DNA from: Burkholderiales bacterium
GTDB lineage: Bacteria; Pseudomonadota; Gammaproteobacteria; Burkholderiales; JACQAP01
DNA: 52,327 nucleotides
Direction: 5' to 3'
NCBI GenBank assembly: GCA_046590325.1
Contig: JBKJUC010000103.1
Location: 1 to 52,327, forward strand
The notes under the pieces were generated by a model. It was not told the DNA's origin, made no database searches, and saw only the letters and a list, made by a program, of their open reading frames with translations. The first letter of the stretch is position 1. Every line of letters begins with the position of its first letter. Of this stretch, positions 1-7,033 are shown piece after piece. Position numbers and translations under genes: made by a program.

Positions 1-1
1 G

Positions 2-169
2 GCGATCGCCGCGCCGTTTGCGTACTCCATGGAGCGCTTTCCGCAGTTCAACGCGTATCTGCGGGTGGCGTCGGGACTGCTCTCGGTGGGTTTTGGATTG
101 TTCCTGATTTATTACATCGGTTATGTGGACGGCCTGTTCGTGCCCGGATCCCTGCCGCAGGCGCAATGA
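2..169 (+). CDS. C-terminal fragment of a probable nickel/cobalt transporter (NiCoT/UreH-like membrane protein), truncated by the window edge
   Basis: Frame +2 reads AIAAPFAYSMERFPQFNAYLRVASGLLSVGFGLFLIYYIGYVDGLFVPGSLPQAQ* (stop 167-169). The hydrophobic helix and the ASGLLSxxFGL...IGxVDGLF tail resemble C-termini of high-affinity nickel-transport proteins, from recall. Confidence 0.6.
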   Translation, partial: AIAAPFAYSMERFPQFNAYLRVASGLLSVGFGLFLIYYIGYVDGLFVPGSLPQAQ

Positions 170-240
170 GCCCACATCGTAAGACGAATAGATTAAATAT
201 TAAGACATTGAAATATAAACGCATTTGTGGCGTCGCAGCA

Positions 241-269
241 TTGACGCGTTTTCATTCGCAAGTTAGATT
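241..269 (+). promoter_or_regulatory. Putative sigma70 promoter
   Basis: TTGACG (241-246), 17-nt spacer, TAGATT (264-269), preceded by an AT-rich tract (185-220). Confidence 0.5.
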
Positions 270-275
270 CCCAAC

Positions 276-878
276 ATGTTGAAAGATGGGAGCGGGCCGC
301 AACGTACGGCCCGGATGGCGACGCTGAAAGGCTTCGGCCTAGGCGTCCTCGTGGTGGGGTTGATCGGCATTGTCGTGTTCGCGGTCATTCGCGAGAACGT
401 AAAGCCGGCCGAGCCGATAGTTGAAGCGAATGCGAGTTTCGTAGGCGGACTCAGCCAGCATGCCCACGAAACAACAGCGCTGAGCCCGGAAGAGGAGTCT
501 TATGCCACTGCACTCTGGCCGATACACAGCGAAGTGAAGCTGGCGGCCGTGCGCATGATATTCGCGGGCCTGGCGTACAAGACGGAAGATCACAACGCGA
601 AGAAACTCAGGGCCAAGGTCCAGCCGCTGACGAAAACTTTCGAAGATGCAGGTATCCGGGTGAGGAAGATCAAGCCGCCCGCCGCCCTGCAGGAAGCCCA
701 CAACAGTTATGTCGAGGCCGTGAAACTGTATTCCTCGGCAACGCGTGAAATGATCAAGGTCGCGGATGACGGCAAGGACGAGCACCTCATCCTGGCCCAG
801 CAGCGCAGCGAGCAGGCTTCGCTGGCCATCCTCAAGTTGAGTGATGTCCTGTGGCCGGGCGAATACAAGCCGAATTGA
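276..878 (+). CDS. Hypothetical membrane-anchored helical protein
   Basis: 200-aa ORF with one N-terminal TM segment (GLGVLVVGLIGIVVFAVI) followed by amphipathic helices. Alternative start ATG at 315. Confidence 0.75.
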   Translation: MLKDGSGPQRTARMATLKGFGLGVLVVGLIGIVVFAVIRENVKPAEPIVEANASFVGGLSQHAHETTALSPEEESYATALWPIHSEVKLAAVRMIFAGLAYKTEDHNAKKLRAKVQPLTKTFEDAGIRVRKIKPPAALQEAHNSYVEAVKLYSSATREMIKVADDGKDEHLILAQQRSEQASLAILKLSDVLWPGEYKPN

Positions 879-963
879 TTCAAGATTTTCCGGGCCGGTA
901 TGGGAGTGTCGGTCTGAAAAGAAGCTGTAAATAAAGTACTTCCAACGTCAAGGAGGGGTAAAA

Positions 964-1968
964 ATGAAAAGCAGCATGAAAAAAGCTCTCGTCGCCGTCG
1001 GCCTCGCCGCCGTGGCAACGCTGGCTGCGCCGGTAGCGCAGGCGCAGTCGTACTCGGTCTGGCTGGTTGAAAACAGCCGCTTCATGAACGTGCCGTACGG
1101 CGCCTTCATGCCGGATCGCGTGTTCGTTCCCGGCAGCACCAGCAAGATGAACAACATCAATACGGTCGATCTTCCCGTGAACGTCGGCGTCATCAAGGGC
1201 ACGGTCAACGGCAAGACTGAGGTGATTCTGGCGGATGCGGGCTGGAAGCAGCAGGACTACCTGAAGATGACCGGCAGCGACCACTACTCTTCCGTGGTCG
1301 ATCAGCTCAAGCTGCTGGGCATTTCCGCAGGCCAGGTCACCAAGATCATCGTCGGCCACGGCCACTGGGACCACGCCGGCAGCCTGAGCGATTTCCCGAA
1401 CGCGGTGCTCTACATCCAGAAGAAGGAACTGGAAGGCATCGAGTGGGCGATCAACTATCCGCATCCCCGCATCAGCGCCACCAACGTCTCGCCCGGCGGC
1501 TGCGCCCGTACCCCGGCCTGCGGCTATCCACCGAAGACGCTGGATGAAATCTACGGCAAGGTCCTCGCCGGCAAGGCTATGATTGTCGACGGCGAAATGG
1601 AAGTTTTGCCCGGCATCAACATCCACCCGGCGCACCATGCCCATACGGCCGGCTCGCAACTGATCGAAGTGAAGACCGGCACATCGGTTGGCACACTCGT
1701 GTTCGGTAGCGACGTGTACTCCTCCTGGCAGGGCATCCGCGACTGGATGATGGCCAATCCGCAAAGCAGCGCGGATACCGCCCAGCAGTTTCTGGCCTAC
1801 GAGAAGTGCTACAAACTGACCGGCGGCTACAACAACTGCATCTCCGGCCATGAGCCGACGTCCTACACAGCCGACTACCCAATCACCAAGAACGCCTGGG
1901 TCGGTGCCAACGGTGCGCGGCTTGCGGAAATCACGCTGGCCCCTGGCGAAAGCTCGAAGAAGAAGTAA
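964..1968 (+). CDS. Secreted MBL-fold metallo-hydrolase, N-acyl-homoserine-lactonase-like family
   Basis: Strong RBS (AAGGAGG), signal peptide ending AQA, HGHWDH (HxHxDH) motif, HTAG, GSD and GHE downstream metal-ligand motifs. Confidence 0.85.
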   Translation: MKSSMKKALVAVGLAAVATLAAPVAQAQSYSVWLVENSRFMNVPYGAFMPDRVFVPGSTSKMNNINTVDLPVNVGVIKGTVNGKTEVILADAGWKQQDYLKMTGSDHYSSVVDQLKLLGISAGQVTKIIVGHGHWDHAGSLSDFPNAVLYIQKKELEGIEWAINYPHPRISATNVSPGGCARTPACGYPPKTLDEIYGKVLAGKAMIVDGEMEVLPGINIHPAHHAHTAGSQLIEVKTGTSVGTLVFGSDVYSSWQGIRDWMMANPQSSADTAQQFLAYEKCYKLTGGYNNCISGHEPTSYTADYPITKNAWVGANGARLAEITLAPGESSKKK

Positions 1969-2005
1969 CAGCCAGACGGTCAGTATCTGATCTGGTAGTT
2001 ATTGG

Positions 2006-2040
2006 ACGAGGAGCCGGGATTCCCGGCTCCTCGTTTGTTT
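2006..2040 (+). terminator. Intrinsic terminator-like hairpin after the MBL gene
   Basis: 13-bp stem ACGAGGAGCCGGG/CCCGGCTCCTCGT followed by TTGTTT. Confidence 0.6.
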
Positions 2041-3244
2041 GTCCGGGCAACAAATCTTGCTTTTATCGAATCGAATACTTCGTGCGATTGCCGCTGTCGT
2101 GCTCCTGGCCGGAGCCGGCACCGCCGGTGCGCATGATCCCAGTGCATACGGTGGATTATTCCGTACGCGCGATTTAGGCGGTGTCTGGCTTAACGCCGAC
2201 GTGGGTCTGTTCCTCGGCGGCGCGGTCTCCCTTGCCATCAGTCCCGCCGATCCCAACCACCTTCTGCTGGGTACCGATTCCTCGCTGCTCGTTTCGCGCA
2301 CTGGCGGACGGGACTGGAAGCGAGAAGCTCCGGACACGCTGTTCGGGGCCGTCTTCGCGGCCACCTTCCTGGCCGACGGAAAGACCGCCTTGTGCTCCAC
2401 GCCGGGAGGCATTTTCCGATTCGACGGCGGCAAGTGGCAGCAGGCAACCGCTCCACCCGAGGCGGCACCGTCACGGGCCATGGTAATCGGCGCCGATCCG
2501 CAGCGCATCTATTTGATTGGACGCCGCGATTTCTTTCGCAGCGAAGACGCCGGGATAACCTGGGCTCGCGTCGAGAACGATCTGGCAGACCGGCCTGAGT
2601 TCACCGCGCTAGTGATCGAGTTGCGGGGCAAGGAAACGCTGTACGCGATCGCCGATGGGCGCCTGTTCGCCAGTCAGGATCGGGGTGCCAGCTGGAGACC
2701 GCGTACCAATGGACTGCCCGATGCGGCCACTATCGAGGCGATTGCCGTAGATGTGGATACCGCAGGTCGATTGTGGGCGGCTGCCGCAGATCGCATCTAT
2801 CTCAGCAACGATGGCGGCGTAAGCTGGACTGCGGTAGGCCAGCCGCTTCCTGAAGCGGGCACCAACGTTCGCAACATCGCTGTGGGTGCGCAAGGTGTGA
2901 CCCTCGTGCTGGCTACACATCGCGGTCTTTATCGCAGCACGGACGGCGCCCGCATCTGGGGAGTGATTGAAGGCAATCTGCCCGTGCATCTGGAAGCGCG
3001 GCCCTTGGTGCGCGATGCGTCGCATGCCGGCACGATCTACGCCGGTTATGCCCTCATGCCTTACAGCGAAATCTGGCGCATCGCAGTCGAAGGCGGCAAT
3101 CTGCTTGACCGGATCGACCCCATCAATCTTGCCGGCGCGGCCGCCTTCATGGTGTTGTTGTGCCTCGGTGGATATTTTTTCACGCGCTGGCTTATCCGCC
3201 GGCGCGATGGCCCCTACGGACCCGTTCGGAACGCAGTCAAATGA
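2039..3244 (+). CDS. BNR/Asp-box (YCF48-like) beta-propeller with signal peptide and C-terminal TM anchor
   Basis: Repeated SxDxGxxW boxes (TRDLGGVW, SRTGGRDW, SEDAGITW, SQDRGASW, SNDGGVSW, STDGARIW), signal peptide ending AGA-HDP, C-terminal TM plus RRR. Start codon uncertain. Confidence 0.85.
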   Translation: MSGQQILLLSNRILRAIAAVVLLAGAGTAGAHDPSAYGGLFRTRDLGGVWLNADVGLFLGGAVSLAISPADPNHLLLGTDSSLLVSRTGGRDWKREAPDTLFGAVFAATFLADGKTALCSTPGGIFRFDGGKWQQATAPPEAAPSRAMVIGADPQRIYLIGRRDFFRSEDAGITWARVENDLADRPEFTALVIELRGKETLYAIADGRLFASQDRGASWRPRTNGLPDAATIEAIAVDVDTAGRLWAAAADRIYLSNDGGVSWTAVGQPLPEAGTNVRNIAVGAQGVTLVLATHRGLYRSTDGARIWGVIEGNLPVHLEARPLVRDASHAGTIYAGYALMPYSEIWRIAVEGGNLLDRIDPINLAGAAAFMVLLCLGGYFFTRWLIRRRDGPYGPVRNAVK

Positions 3245-4239
3245 AAAGTCAGGCTGGCTCGATAAAATCCCTCAAGTTTGGCGCGATCTTCGTCGTTGTG
3301 GTCGTTTCCGCAGTCGCTGCGATAATGGTGTGGCAGCGCTCGTCCGGGCCAACTGCCGCGGATGTTGTGGAATATCCGATGACGGATCAGCGCGACACGC
3401 CGACCGCGCTGGCTGTTGCCGCCGACGGGACGGTCTGGTTTACCATCGATTTTGCGGCAGCCATCGGCCGCGTGCGTGATGGCAAGGTGGAACGCCTGCC
3501 GAAGCCGCGTACCAGTCTCGAGCCTGTAGGAATCGCGGTCACCGCGGACGGCGCGGCCTGGTTCACTGATTCCGAGGCGCGCCAGGTGTCGCGCATCGCG
3601 TCTTCCGGCGAGATATCGTCGATCACGATCGAAACGCCAGTGGCACGGCTGGGCAAGATCGCGGCCGCTCCGGACGGGTCGGTCTGGTTCACGGAGGCCA
3701 CCGCCTACAGCATCACGCGTGTCAGGGATGGCAAGCTGCAGCGGAACGTGATCGAATCGATTCGTAGTGGACCGCTTGGCGTCGCTGTCGGCGGCGACGG
3801 AACGGTCTGGGCAACCCTGCAAAGCGGAAACCAGCTGCTTCGAATCGCCGCGGACGGCAAGATGCAGACTTTCGACATTCCCACCCGGAACAGCTCACCG
3901 GCTGACATCGCGGTTGGTCCGGATGGGGTCGTCTGGTTTCTCGAGTTCCGCGGCAACAAGGTCGGGCGATTTGCCGGGGGGAAATTCGAGGAATTCCAGG
4001 TGGGCGAGCAAAGCGCCGGCCTGACCGGCATTGCGGTGGCGCCGGATGGGGCCGTCTGGTTCGGGATGCTGCGCAACGGCAGCCTTGGTCGCCTGCGCGA
4101 TGGAAAAATGCGCGAATTCAAACTGCCCCGCGAAGGCGCTCGCCCCTACAGCGTTGCCGCCGACGCCGCAGGCAATATCTGGTACACGGATATCAGTGGA
4201 TATGTGGGGATGCTGAAGGCGAGTGCCGCCAGGAAGTAA
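3241..4239 (+). CDS. Vgb-like seven-bladed beta-propeller, N-terminally membrane-anchored
   Basis: Seven repeats of PxxIAvxxDGxVWFT. ATG at 3241 overlaps the upstream TGA (ATGA). N-terminal TM segment. Confidence 0.85.
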   Translation: MKSQAGSIKSLKFGAIFVVVVVSAVAAIMVWQRSSGPTAADVVEYPMTDQRDTPTALAVAADGTVWFTIDFAAAIGRVRDGKVERLPKPRTSLEPVGIAVTADGAAWFTDSEARQVSRIASSGEISSITIETPVARLGKIAAAPDGSVWFTEATAYSITRVRDGKLQRNVIESIRSGPLGVAVGGDGTVWATLQSGNQLLRIAADGKMQTFDIPTRNSSPADIAVGPDGVVWFLEFRGNKVGRFAGGKFEEFQVGEQSAGLTGIAVAPDGAVWFGMLRNGSLGRLRDGKMREFKLPREGARPYSVAADAAGNIWYTDISGYVGMLKASAARK

Positions 4240-4255
4240 GCGGCACTGACGCAGC

Positions 4256-4345
4256 AAAGAGGTTAAAGGTTAAAGGTGAAAGTGAAAACCAAGAGCTTTT
4301 AGATCGCTCTCACTTTTACCTTTTACCTTTTACCTTTTACCTTTT
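4256..4345. repeat. Palindromic element with 7-bp tandem arms (AAAGGTT / TTTTACC)
   Basis: Left AAAGAGGTTAAAGGTTAAAGGTGAAAGTGAAA; right TCAC(TTTTACC)x4 TTTT. Lies between convergent genes. Confidence 0.8.
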
Positions 4346-4359
4346 CGCTTTGAAGCCGG

Positions 4360-5286
4360 CTACGCCAGCGAGCGGAGCAAGCGGATGGCGTTGAAGCTGA
4401 GAACGACGCCGACCACCACGATCAGCAGCGACGTGCCGACCTGCAGGCGCATGGCCCAGACGCCCGCGAGCCAGTCGAGGATCTTCGAGCCGACTTTCGC
4501 GGCAACGACACCGACGACCACCAGCGTCGTGGCGAAGCCGATGCTGAACACCACGGCCATCGTCATTCCGAGCATCACCTTGCCTTCCGCAAGAGCGGCC
4601 AGAAGCAGGCCAAGCGCCGCGGGATCGGGCAGCAGGCCACCGGCAATGCCGAGCCAGATCAGGATCCAAAGGCTAGGGCGATTCGTCGTAGCCAGTTTCA
4701 GATCATGCGTGTGCTTGAAGCCCCAGCCGTGCGAATGCATGCCGCCTTCCTCATGATCGTGCGCGTTGGCATGGGCATGGTCGTGAGCATGAGCATGGCT
4801 GTGATCGTGCGCATGAGTATGAGTTGCCCCCTGCGCCGCAATCGGCCGGTAACGCAGCGCTGCATCTCTCTCGCCATGCGAATGCTCGGCGCCGTGATCG
4901 TGACCGTGACCGTGATCGTGATCGTGGCCGGGACCGTGATTGTGCGCGGCCGCGGGAGGCAGCCCCTGCAGTTGCAACAGCATTTCGCGCTGCGTCCATA
5001 GGGTCCACAGGCCGATGCCAATGACCAGGATGCCTGTGATCAGCGCCAGCCATGCCTCGATGCGTTGCGGGACCATCCCCGGCAGGCCCAACGATGCCAG
5101 CACGCCGACCAGGATGATGCCGCTGGTGTGCGAGAGCGTGACGAAGACACCCAGGATCACCGCATCGACAGGCTTGCCACGCGCGCCGACGATGTAAGCA
5201 GCGGCAATGGTTTTGCCATGCCCCGGAGTTGCGGCATGCACCGCGCCGATCCAGAAGCTGGTCGCGAGATAAATCAGGGTGTCCAT
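4360..5286 (-). CDS. RcnA-like nickel/cobalt transporter with His-rich loop
   Basis: HAATPGHGKT signature, SHTSG motif, long His/Asp-rich central loop (HNHGPGHDHDHGHGHDH...HSHGWGFKHTH), about six TM segments. Confidence 0.85.
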   Translation of the reverse strand: MDTLIYLATSFWIGAVHAATPGHGKTIAAAYIVGARGKPVDAVILGVFVTLSHTSGIILVGVLASLGLPGMVPQRIEAWLALITGILVIGIGLWTLWTQREMLLQLQGLPPAAAHNHGPGHDHDHGHGHDHGAEHSHGERDAALRYRPIAAQGATHTHAHDHSHAHAHDHAHANAHDHEEGGMHSHGWGFKHTHDLKLATTNRPSLWILIWLGIAGGLLPDPAALGLLLAALAEGKVMLGMTMAVVFSIGFATTLVVVGVVAAKVGSKILDWLAGVWAMRLQVGTSLLIVVVGVVLSFNAIRLLRSLA

Positions 5287-5384
5287 GGGGTGCGGCGGTT
5301 CCTGCGGAGGATGTTGTTATCGTTATCGGGGGCGAGAATAGGTGCCGCCCCCAGCCATGTCAAGACAAGCGGCCGGGGGCGCCG

Positions 5385-5587: not shown

Positions 5588-7033
5588 ATGCGACGGATTC
5601 TGGTGCTTGCGTCGCTGCTGGCCTTTTGCGCTGGCGCGGCGGCCGAGACGCACAAGGGCTATCAGGCCTGGACCAACGGCGACTTCAAGACCGCCGTCGA
5701 GGAATTCCGCCAGTCCGCCGAGCAGGGTGATCCGCTTGCGATGTTCTATCTTGGCGAGGCCTATTACAACGGTCGCGGTGTCGTGCAGGATTTCGCCGAA
5801 GGCATCAAGTGGTATTCGCAATCCGCGGAGAAGGGGCAGGTCGAGGCGCAGGAAACGCTCGGCGGCCTGTATTTCTTCGGCAAGGGTGTAGCGCAGGACC
5901 ACGCGCAGGCGGCGAAGTGGTATGCGCCGGCGGCGAAGCAGGGCAAGGTCTATCCGCAGTATCTCCTCGGTTACCTGTACGACCAGGGCAAGGGCGTCGC
6001 GCAGGATCATGCGCAGGCCGCCGAGTGGTACCGCAAGGCCGCCGAACAGGGCAACGTCGATGCGCAGGAAAGCCTGGCTTCGCTGCTGTTCTTCGGTCGC
6101 GGCGTGAAACAGGATTACACCGAAGCGGCGAAGTGGTATCGCAAGCCCGCCGAGGAAGGCCGCGCCTATCCGCAGTATTTGCTTGGCTGGATGTCGGAAC
6201 AGGGCCGCGGCGTGCAGCCGGATCCCGCGGAAGCGGCGAAGTGGTATCGCAAGGCGGCGGACCAAAACGATCCGCGCGCGCAGGCGAGCCTCGGTTTTCT
6301 CTATTCCTCGGGCAAGGGTGTCGCGCAGGATCCCGCCGAAGCGGTGAAGTGGTTGCAGAAAGCCGCGACGCAGAACGAATCTTCCGCTTACTCGAGCCTG
6401 GCCTGGGCCTACTACCAGGGCAAGGGCGTGACCGCCGATCCCGTCGAAGCGGCGAAGTGGTTCCGCAAATCGGCCGACGAAGGCGACGCGCAGGCGAAGT
6501 ACATGCTTGGCTATTTATATGAGGACGGCAAGGGTGTGACCGCCGACGGCAACGAAGCCGCCAAATGGTACAAACAAGCAGCGCAAGCCGGTGTGGCCGA
6601 AGCGCAGGAAAGTCTTGGCGCGCTCTACTTCTTCGGCAAGGGCGTGGCGCAGGACTACTCGGCAGCGGCGAACTGGTATAAGGCGCCCGCCGAGAAGGGC
6701 AGCACCTACGCGCAATACCTGCTCGGCTATCTTTATGAAGAGGGCAAGGGCGTCGCGCAGGATTCCGCGGCTGCTGCGAAGTGGTACTCGCTCGCAGCGG
6801 AAAAGGGCGATGCGCGCGCGCAAAGCCATCTCGGCTGGATGCTGTGGGAAGGCAAGGGCGTGCCCCAGGATTCCGTGAACGCCTACATGTGGTCCAATAT
6901 CGCCGCTTCCCAGCTTTCAGGAGAAGAGGGCGATCGCGTCGGCAAGGTCCGCGATTTCATCGCTTCCAGGCTGCAGCCGGACCAGCTCGCCAAGGCCCAG
7001 GAACAGGCCCGCAACTGGCAGCCAAAAAAATAG
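5588..7033 (+). CDS. Secreted SEL1-like repeat protein (11 repeats)
   Basis: RBS GGAGGAG, signal peptide, eleven 36-aa AQxxLGxLYxxGxGVxQDxxxAxKWYxxAAxxG repeats. Confidence 0.92.
   Translation: MRRILVLASLLAFCAGAAAETHKGYQAWTNGDFKTAVEEFRQSAEQGDPLAMFYLGEAYYNGRGVVQDFAEGIKWYSQSAEKGQVEAQETLGGLYFFGKGVAQDHAQAAKWYAPAAKQGKVYPQYLLGYLYDQGKGVAQDHAQAAEWYRKAAEQGNVDAQESLASLLFFGRGVKQDYTEAAKWYRKPAEEGRAYPQYLLGWMSEQGRGVQPDPAEAAKWYRKAADQNDPRAQASLGFLYSSGKGVAQDPAEAVKWLQKAATQNESSAYSSLAWAYYQGKGVTADPVEAAKWFRKSADEGDAQAKYMLGYLYEDGKGVTADGNEAAKWYKQAAQAGVAEAQESLGALYFFGKGVAQDYSAAANWYKAPAEKGSTYAQYLLGYLYEEGKGVAQDSAAAAKWYSLAAEKGDARAQSHLGWMLWEGKGVPQDSVNAYMWSNIAASQLSGEEGDRVGKVRDFIASRLQPDQLAKAQEQARNWQPKK

Follow-up and report, generated by a model that had tools for sequence, protein, structure and literature searches.

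A conserved four-gene envelope module encoding a lactonase-like hydrolase, often flanked by NicO-family permeases, in Burkholderiales

Why would a lactonase-like hydrolase be encoded together with three membrane-anchored proteins, and between two metal-type permeases? The question is raised by a contig of a Burkholderiales bacterium (G000:C20:1-52327; assembly of 3.69 Mb, 98% complete), which was analyzed at its full length of 52,327 nucleotides and is called the window below. At its start lies the end of a gene for a NicO-like permease (N). It is followed by a core of four genes, encoding a small helical protein (orf2), a hydrolase of the metallo-β-lactamase fold (MBL), and two β-propellers (BNR and Vgb-like), and then by the gene of an RcnA-like permease (R). 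A first-pass annotation had placed six open reading frames (ORFs) between positions 2 and 5286, all of which were recovered by an ORF listing, and had read them as a periplasmic Ni/Co enzyme served by its own metal-delivery or scaffold proteins. Metal supply to exported metalloenzymes in the periplasm is known in few cases, mostly involving copper. Our analysis reveals an envelope lactonase module of uncultured soil Burkholderiales that is real and undescribed. The permeases are likely linked to it, in a way that is dispensable; the enzyme might hold Ni or Co, and the propellers might deliver metal, as originally suggested.

The four core genes are inherited together. An orf2 alignment was used to scan 185,579 species, each represented by one genome, and 66 loci were obtained. 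Almost all of them are labeled as metagenome-assembled genomes of Burkholderiales or Betaproteobacteria, and a few have other labels. The order orf2-MBL-BNR-Vgb is complete in 51 of these species-level loci, the other 15 are cut by contig ends, and wherever sequence is available no core gene is missing or replaced. Hence, the four genes are syntenic across genomes, as the first-pass annotation would have it, and the arrangement is far from chance because it recurs in 66 species-level loci. With the MBL as query, 21 of 24 congeners and one other family gave full-length matches (E <= 1e-149). The 16 relatives that were fetched all carry N-orf2-MBL-BNR-Vgb in this order, 15 of them with R as well. 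When 301 genomes of the order were sampled, orf2 was present in 17 of them, belonging to 5 of the 142 genera (5 families), and those loci hold all four core genes. The median intergenic gaps in the core are 92, 73, and 7 nt, and the start of the Vgb-like gene overlaps the stop of the BNR gene by ATGA in 10 of 22 loci and in the window, where this coupling had been noticed before. Gene trees add that the core moves as a block. In all four core trees, the subclade of the window groups with genus g45 and one g34 genome (Shimodaira-Hasegawa-like support 0.99-1.0), a split that is absent from the trees of N and R, which keep genus g1 together (support 0.94 and 0.80, respectively). This conflict between trees indicates that the core was exchanged between genera as a block, the permeases being resident. 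We thus regard it as very probable that the four genes form one functional unit, which may be co-transcribed and whose products may be physically associated. The component superfamilies are all known; the gene combination and its block inheritance are new, and we found no description of this gene cluster in the literature.

What could this unit do? The MBL is its most conserved member, with a mean column identity of 79% (54-61% for the other three), and it matches Pfam Lactamase_B at 35.8 bits. Export and anchoring were assigned throughout from hydropathy and from N-termini read by eye, and the N-terminus of the MBL, read in this way, is Sec-signal-like. The binuclear ligand set HxHxDH, H, D, H that had been noted earlier is indeed complete: H132, H134, D136, H137, H227, D250, and H296 are invariant in 22 sequences, and so are three cysteines (C180, C186, and C282). 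It is an ordinary binuclear MBL set, capable of holding Zn, Fe, Mn, or Co. The best solved relative by sequence is 8x78 (E 2.2e-22). This is an N-acyl homoserine lactone (AHL) lactonase of Pseudomonas poae, and Foldseek retrieved it with the predicted model too (E 7.6e-18, template-modelling score 0.65/0.74), followed by MPH, 4-pyridoxolactonase, AiiA, AhlX, GcL, and AidC. By sequence and by fold, the MBL therefore belongs to the AHL-lactonase branch of the MBL fold, and its lactonase likeness stands. It reaches none of the cut-offs of curated lactonase equivalogs (AiiA, AttM, AhlS, YtnP, and AidB), the best being AiiA with 40.8 versus 375 bits. Plasmid homologs about 28% identical to it are annotated as AHL-lactonase family. 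No relative at E <= 1e-30 beyond the window's own was found in a class-wide sample of 400 genomes. The enzyme would hydrolyze a lactone or an ester. If the substrate is an AHL, it is probably foreign, since no LuxR-type autoinducer-binding domain was found in the genome of the window in a search with a valid control. A search for LuxI gave no match in this genome either, but its control also matched nowhere, which makes the result uninformative. In a clade lacking the transporters, a second MBL paralog with about 27% identity is encoded some 2 kb downstream of the core (L037:14412-15212; L038:1229-1927), where it follows two genes for CoA-transferase subunits.

The partners of the enzyme differ in what they resemble. 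The protein orf2 has a single N-terminal hydrophobic helix, and its model (predicted local distance difference test, pLDDT, 79) comprises a transmembrane helix (residues 16-41), which a disordered linker connects to a four-helix bundle (residues 71-192). It matches no Pfam or NCBIfam family, and Atlas returned unnamed clusters only. All its fold matches are generic four-helix bundles, with a best Foldseek E of 0.03 and a best VIA Z of 12.6, which is below the meaningful level for helical bundles. Among the matches listed in these fold searches there is no CnrX-like metal-sensor family, although such a kinship may still exist. When 1.84 billion representatives were searched with a profile, 264 relatives were recovered at E <= 0.001, including 60 at E <= 1e-30. 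The C-terminal motif WPGE(Y/F)KPN is invariant, and E74, H84, P135, H142, Y145, H170, and W193 are conserved throughout the wider family. The conserved histidines and glutamate are leads only for a role in metal binding.

Two further observations concern this protein. Its distant relatives, retrieved by a scan with a four-sequence subset, are found in long loci beside a trp operon, ScpA, and DUF512, and these loci contain neither an MBL nor propellers. They include a subfamily with a conserved cytoplasmic N-terminal motif, encoded on high-GC metagenome contigs (L109:7758-8432; L108:2359-3078), whose gene sits between that of ScpA, after the trp operon, and a DUF512 radical-SAM-like gene. In addition, the generic bundle matches of orf2 include PsbQ and CyanoQ, and the neighboring BNR propeller is Ycf48-like. 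These are folds of lumenal proteins of photosystem II, and the lineage here is non-photosynthetic; the resemblance is probably a coincidence at the level of the fold.

The two propellers can be placed in families, short of the named functions within them. The BNR protein has Asp-box repeats and passes the Pfam PSII_BNR cut-off (39 versus 27 bits), while remaining below those of the Ycf48 model (41.9 versus 326) and of the F510_1955 model (92.1 versus 175). It has a signal-like N-terminus and a C-terminal hydrophobic segment. Its residues H32-D33-P34 (window 2132-2140) and H317 are invariant in 22 orthologs. Since the HDP motif directly follows the predicted cleavage site, the mature propeller would start with a histidine, which is a possible metal site; like the residues of orf2, this invariant His-Asp is only a lead for such a role. 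The Vgb-like protein matches Pfam Vgb_lyase (PF24684) at 241.4 bits versus a cut-off of 50, and the PDB entries 2qc5 and 2z2n at E 1e-59 and E 1e-56; the VgbA and VgbB models give 175.6 and 174.6 bits versus the 600 demanded. It contains 0 His and 0 Cys. The residues H228, E268, and H270 of 2z2n, which we take to be the catalytic His/Glu/His Mg site of Vgb, align with A, G, and T. Lacking histidine, the protein cannot carry this site, and the lack of both His and Cys makes it a poor fit for a Ni/Co chaperone. This weakens the earlier suggestion that the propellers deliver metal.

Are the flanking permeases part of the system? The window contains only the end of N. The rest can be traced to contig C189, which terminates in a 280-amino-acid (aa) ORF whose 3' end matches window positions 1-140 at 95%. 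The two contigs are collinear with a single uninterrupted locus of a congener that is 93.5% identical, and the fragment can therefore be assigned as the C-terminus of the 280-aa protein. Each gene of the cluster is present once in the assembly (tblastn). Beyond the overlap of 140 bp, the final ~280 bases of C189 (C189:12860-13139, compared with window 141-420) diverge from the window, and only one stretch of 58 bp matches it, at 79%. This is probably strain heterogeneity, explaining the assembly break within the permease gene.

The assignment of this fragment to a nickel-type permease is borne out, if narrowly: N is a marginal member of Pfam NicO (28.0 bits versus a cut-off of 27.7), and the named Atlas clusters closest to it are NicO without exception (0.98). 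It does not reach the NiCoT model TIGR00802 (23.6 versus 333 bits), and the NCBIfam cut-off for RcnA is also far off. Its first hydrophobic segment includes RHATDADH (residues 17-24), a motif of the HX4DH type. Such a motif in an early transmembrane segment is the signature of NiCoT importers (HoxN/NixA), which have eight transmembrane segments. In a simple hydropathy scan N has six hydrophobic segments; it contains 17 His and a central His-rich loop. R is a NicO member (PF03824, 41.9 versus 27.7 bits) that falls short of the RcnA-type model NF007454 (152.9 versus 195 bits), and most of its 28 His cluster in a central loop between hydrophobic segments 2 and 3. By hydropathy, N and R both show the six-segment build with a His-rich loop that RcnA has. 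No gene for an RcnR/CsoR regulator was found in the assembly of the window, and no RcnB-like partner was identified for R.

Other clients and other transporters were also considered. Urease was rejected as the client of N: its alpha subunit is encoded in five of the five genomes tested, including three without N. NiFe hydrogenase was found in none of the same number of genomes tested (0/5). At one locus, R is replaced by a 367-aa HupE_UreJ_2 protein (161 bits), encoded convergently to the Vgb-like gene (L082:13122-14222, minus strand). This is the only such replacement among 90 loci. The coordinates of the cluster in the window are collected in Table 1.

Table 1. Coordinates of the permease genes, core genes, and putative promoters at the start of the window.
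Feature	Positions	Strand	Remark
N, NicO-family permease with His-rich loop (280 aa), last 55 codons	2..169	+	remainder at C189:12067-12909
Promoter-like TTGACG-17-TAGATT before orf2	241..269	+	putative; consensus match and conservation among the congeners compared
orf2, type-II anchored protein (200 aa), predicted periplasmic four-helix bundle	276..878	+	
MBL, exported MBL-fold hydrolase of the lactonase clade (334 aa)	964..1968	+	
BNR/Ycf48-like β-propeller, signal-like N-terminus, C-terminal membrane anchor	2039..3244	+	
Vgb-like, seven-blade propeller of the Vgb-lyase family, N-terminal membrane anchor	3241..4239	+	
R, RcnA-like NicO-family permease (308 aa), convergent with the core	4360..5286	-	
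Promoter-like TTGACA-17-TATTCT before R	5335..5363	-	putative; consensus match and conservation among the congeners compared

Metal-type transporters neighbor the core far more often than not, as had been proposed. N lies directly upstream of it in 48 of the 56 loci where this can be tested, and R directly downstream in 37 of 47; in one further locus R lies at a distance of 5.5 kb. This adjacency is seen beside outer flanks of at least four kinds (DUF1800/DUF1501, DnaE2, VWA, and Smr) and, for R, with the gene on either strand, the convergent orientation being found in most loci. The only two PF03824 genes in the genome of the window are N and R themselves, flanking the core. In the sample of the order, NicO genes are present in 14 of 17 genomes bearing the core and in 89 of 284 others, and those of the core-bearing genomes sit at the cluster, among the matches listed.

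The putative promoter regions of N, the core, and R were compared as well. The promoter-like pair before orf2 has a CTGCGnCGCAG-type palindrome just upstream, and a terminator-like hairpin at 230-247 is better read as part of this conserved promoter region. About 100 bp upstream of N there is a 15-mer resembling a Fur box (G000:C189:11950-11964; ~731-745 in L002). It is kept in all 12 loci of this genus that were compared (11 relatives and the genome of the window) and was not found in other genera. Near-identical sites are just upstream of tonB and of a gene for a TonB-dependent receptor on contig C90 of the same genome, which has 5 sites with at most one mismatch versus ~0.3 expected by simple arithmetic. 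This suggests control by iron or metal starvation, either of N or of the divergent DUF1800/DUF1501 genes. There is no riboswitch near the cluster in the five loci searched with Rfam at E <= 0.1, where only one tRNA and chance-level matches to miRNA and plastid models appeared.

We propose the following explanation, to which we give a probability of about 45%. The orf2, MBL, BNR, and Vgb-like proteins would be the products of an operon-like unit acting at the periplasmic face of the inner membrane. The MBL, exported by Sec and with two metal ions in its active site, would hydrolyze a lactone or an ester, working with three membrane-anchored partners, namely the four-helix-bundle protein and two propellers whose amounts would be coupled. 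The permeases would be a loosely coupled and dispensable accessory, most likely handling the economy of divalent metals around the exported enzyme. This could mean periplasmic supply, removal of excess, or both, and it would not be an obligatory chain of Ni/Co delivery. We infer this role of the permeases for the enzyme, and with it the metal held. That they are functionally linked to the core at all is a view toward which we lean slightly.

Several observations weigh against this explanation, most of them against the part played by the permeases. The core lacks N in 8 of 56 and R in 9 of 47 testable loci. N is absent from two clades; R is absent as well from one of these and from parts of the second, and six loci have neither. 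Three genomes that are 93-99% complete (G102, G234, and G150) carry the core with no N homolog and no PF03824 gene. The core, including the MBL ligands, is intact in these transporter-less genomes, so a dedicated line of metal delivery is not obligatory and the tie of the permeases to the core must be dispensable. In most loci R runs convergent with the core and is therefore transcribed separately. The upstream regions of N, the core, and R have different conserved motifs with no evident common operator, and the Fur-box-like site is found before N only. The adjacency counts are not independent events because all loci come from one order, mostly from uncultured bacteria, and a core replaced in situ by recombination between homologous flanks could keep the adjacency without selection. 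As for the enzyme itself, its model is only moderately confident (pLDDT 64). The MBL or R is in several pieces in three loci (L099, L100, and L053), which could be decay or assembly error. In two congeners the MBL ortholog has one internal stop, TAA in one (G019:C7:101304-102290, locus L022) and TAG in the other (G005:C194:23-994), and these genes could be pseudogenes or the stops sequencing errors.

The same facts feed the alternative that survives best, in which N and R are an ordinary homeostasis pair for Ni/Co, or for another metal, and the lactonase module merely lies between them. The arrangement would then persist by vertical descent and by replacement of the core through homologous recombination using the flanks. 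This fits the finding that the core persists intact in two clades where neither permease accompanies it, and in genomes with no NicO gene, as well as the block-wise exchange of a core whose flanking permeases follow the genus tree. The differing promoter motifs, the convergent orientation of R, and the frequency of NicO genes in genomes of the order without the core point in the same direction. It is harder to reconcile with an adjacency that has been kept in several families despite differing outer flanks and the inversion of R, with the location of the NicO genes of core-bearing genomes at the cluster, among the matches listed, or with the transporter of a different Ni-type family found in the place of R at one locus. 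We consider this alternative unlikely, although it deserves to be taken seriously.

A stricter version of the metal link, close to the first-pass annotation, holds that the MBL depends on Ni/Co, that N is an exporter delivering the metal, and that the anchored helical protein and the propellers are metallochaperones or a scaffold. Enzymes exported by a Sec-type route load their metal in the periplasm, and such export of the MBL, together with the adjacency statistics and the RcnA-like build of N and R, would be expected from this model. The residues kept family-wide in orf2 (E74, H84, H142, and H170) and the His-Asp-Pro and H317 of the BNR protein could provide metal sites. There is also a precedent, conceptual and by analogy, for an exporter that serves a periplasmic need: a passage of a study on cable bacteria proposes that RcnA supplies Ni to a periplasmic structure (PMC11247825). 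The model has to face a core maintained in genomes with no NicO gene, a Vgb-like protein with neither His nor Cys, and a ligand set that is the ordinary one of Zn/Fe/Mn/Co-capable MBLs. Furthermore, N combines the HX4DH motif of importers with a Fur-box-like site, in this genus, that is typical of uptake genes. We find the strict model rather improbable, and we have still stronger doubts about its most specific form, where N is a dedicated metal feed, the lactonase is a Ni/Co enzyme in a tethered complex with orf2 and the propellers, and the His-Asp of the BNR protein is the hand-over site. If true, a dedicated route of metallation would here be described for the first time for a periplasmic enzyme of the MBL fold. 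What stands of the earlier interpretation is the synteny, the NicO fragment, the lactonase likeness, and the adjacency; an obligatory delivery of Ni/Co is not supported, and the idea of the propellers as chaperones is weakened. The dedication of the transporters to the enzyme loses ground both from the exchange of the core between genera without them and from the different motifs in the promoter regions of the permeases and the core.

A different use of the lactonase would be the processing of a metallophore. The enzyme would open a cyclic-ester chelator in the periplasm, the propellers would bind the chelator, and N would import the freed metal under starvation. Periplasmic trilactone esterases act in an analogous way on siderophores. 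The membership of the MBL in the lactonase clade is in line with this idea, as is the activity of Vgb and SGL relatives on cyclic esters, going by the Pfam names. The Fur-box-like site upstream of N matches the sites before tonB and the TonB-dependent receptor, and in one locus (L034) a gene for a TonB-dependent receptor lies two genes beyond R. Yet this is the only annotated locus with such a gene near the cluster, there being no TonB-dependent receptor or biosynthesis genes near it in the window or in the other annotated loci; the core promoter region has no Fur-like box, and clades without N keep the core. We regard this scenario as highly improbable.

Finally, a module for periplasmic metal stress, in which the anchored proteins sense or sequester exported Ni/Co and the MBL is secondary, could be imagined after RcnB with RcnA and CnrX with Cnr, the periplasmic partners of Ni/Co systems, given two flanking permeases of RcnA architecture and an anchored helical protein with conserved His and Glu, but it can be given very little credence when the MBL far exceeds the other members in conservation, as expected of a catalytic center, when orf2 matches no metal-sensor family in the searches run and has distant relatives in a housekeeping context, and when no RcnR/CsoR gene was found in the genome of the window.

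Other genes near the cluster should be mentioned. Several genera have a set of partner-switching genes no more than a few kb from the cluster, encoding a CHASE2-PP2C phosphatase, a STAS protein, an RsbW-like kinase, and a second MBL (Lactamase_B_2), in varying arrangements (G000:C189:3544-8506; L036:714-5627; L076:9484-13325; L025:4643-5125). The RsbW-like gene is the immediate neighbor of the Vgb-like gene in three lineages. Downstream of R, and within this genus only, there is a gene for a 481-aa protein with 11 Sel1 repeats (window 5588-7033, plus strand), which scores 207 bits versus a cut-off of 350 with the MerG phenylmercury-resistance model. It is probably unrelated to the cluster.

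These results define a new partnership, tightly conserved, in which an AHL-lactonase-type enzyme is joined by two anchored propellers; one propeller is a catalytically stripped relative of an antibiotic-resistance lyase. The loci also provide a natural experiment, in which the same enzyme cassette is found with two, one, or no NicO-type permeases beside it. If the enzyme degrades signaling lactones or lactone antibiotics at the cell surface, the module bears on quorum quenching and on resistance in soil. If none of these readings holds, it would be an ordinary uncharacterized operon of an uncultured lineage.

How does the module compare with systems that are known? Among the AHL lactonases, the MBL has the binuclear ligand set in common with 8x78, AiiA, AidC, GcL, and AhlX, and the alignment reveals a C-terminal extension shared with 8x78. 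It differs from them in being only about 22-24% identical in the fold alignment, in its export, in an extra insert that contains cysteines (C180 and C186), and in being fixed in an operon-like set with three anchored proteins. The BNR protein resembles the Ycf48 and F510_1955 propellers in its PSII_BNR match and its Asp boxes, and departs from them by the C-terminal membrane anchor and the invariant N-terminal HDP. F510_1955 itself is, in a passage of PMC3948429, without known function. The Vgb-like protein has the seven-blade Vgb_lyase propeller of the virginiamycin B lyase Vgb (2z2n and 2qc5), but is membrane anchored, faces the periplasm, and has no histidine. With the RcnA/RcnB system for Ni/Co efflux of Escherichia coli, the cluster shares the NicO family and, in R, the central His-rich loop. 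R differs in remaining below the cut-off of NF007454, in the lack of RcnR/CsoR in the genome of the window, and in having an enzyme and propellers as neighbors. NiCoT permeases are encoded beside their client enzymes in several cases, such as UreH with urease, NhlF with nitrile hydratase, and HoxN with hydrogenase. The cluster resembles these pairs in the HX4DH-type motif of N and in the position of a transporter gene beside that of a metalloenzyme, but N has a His-rich loop and, in the simple hydropathy scan, six hydrophobic segments instead of eight, and its client would be periplasmic.

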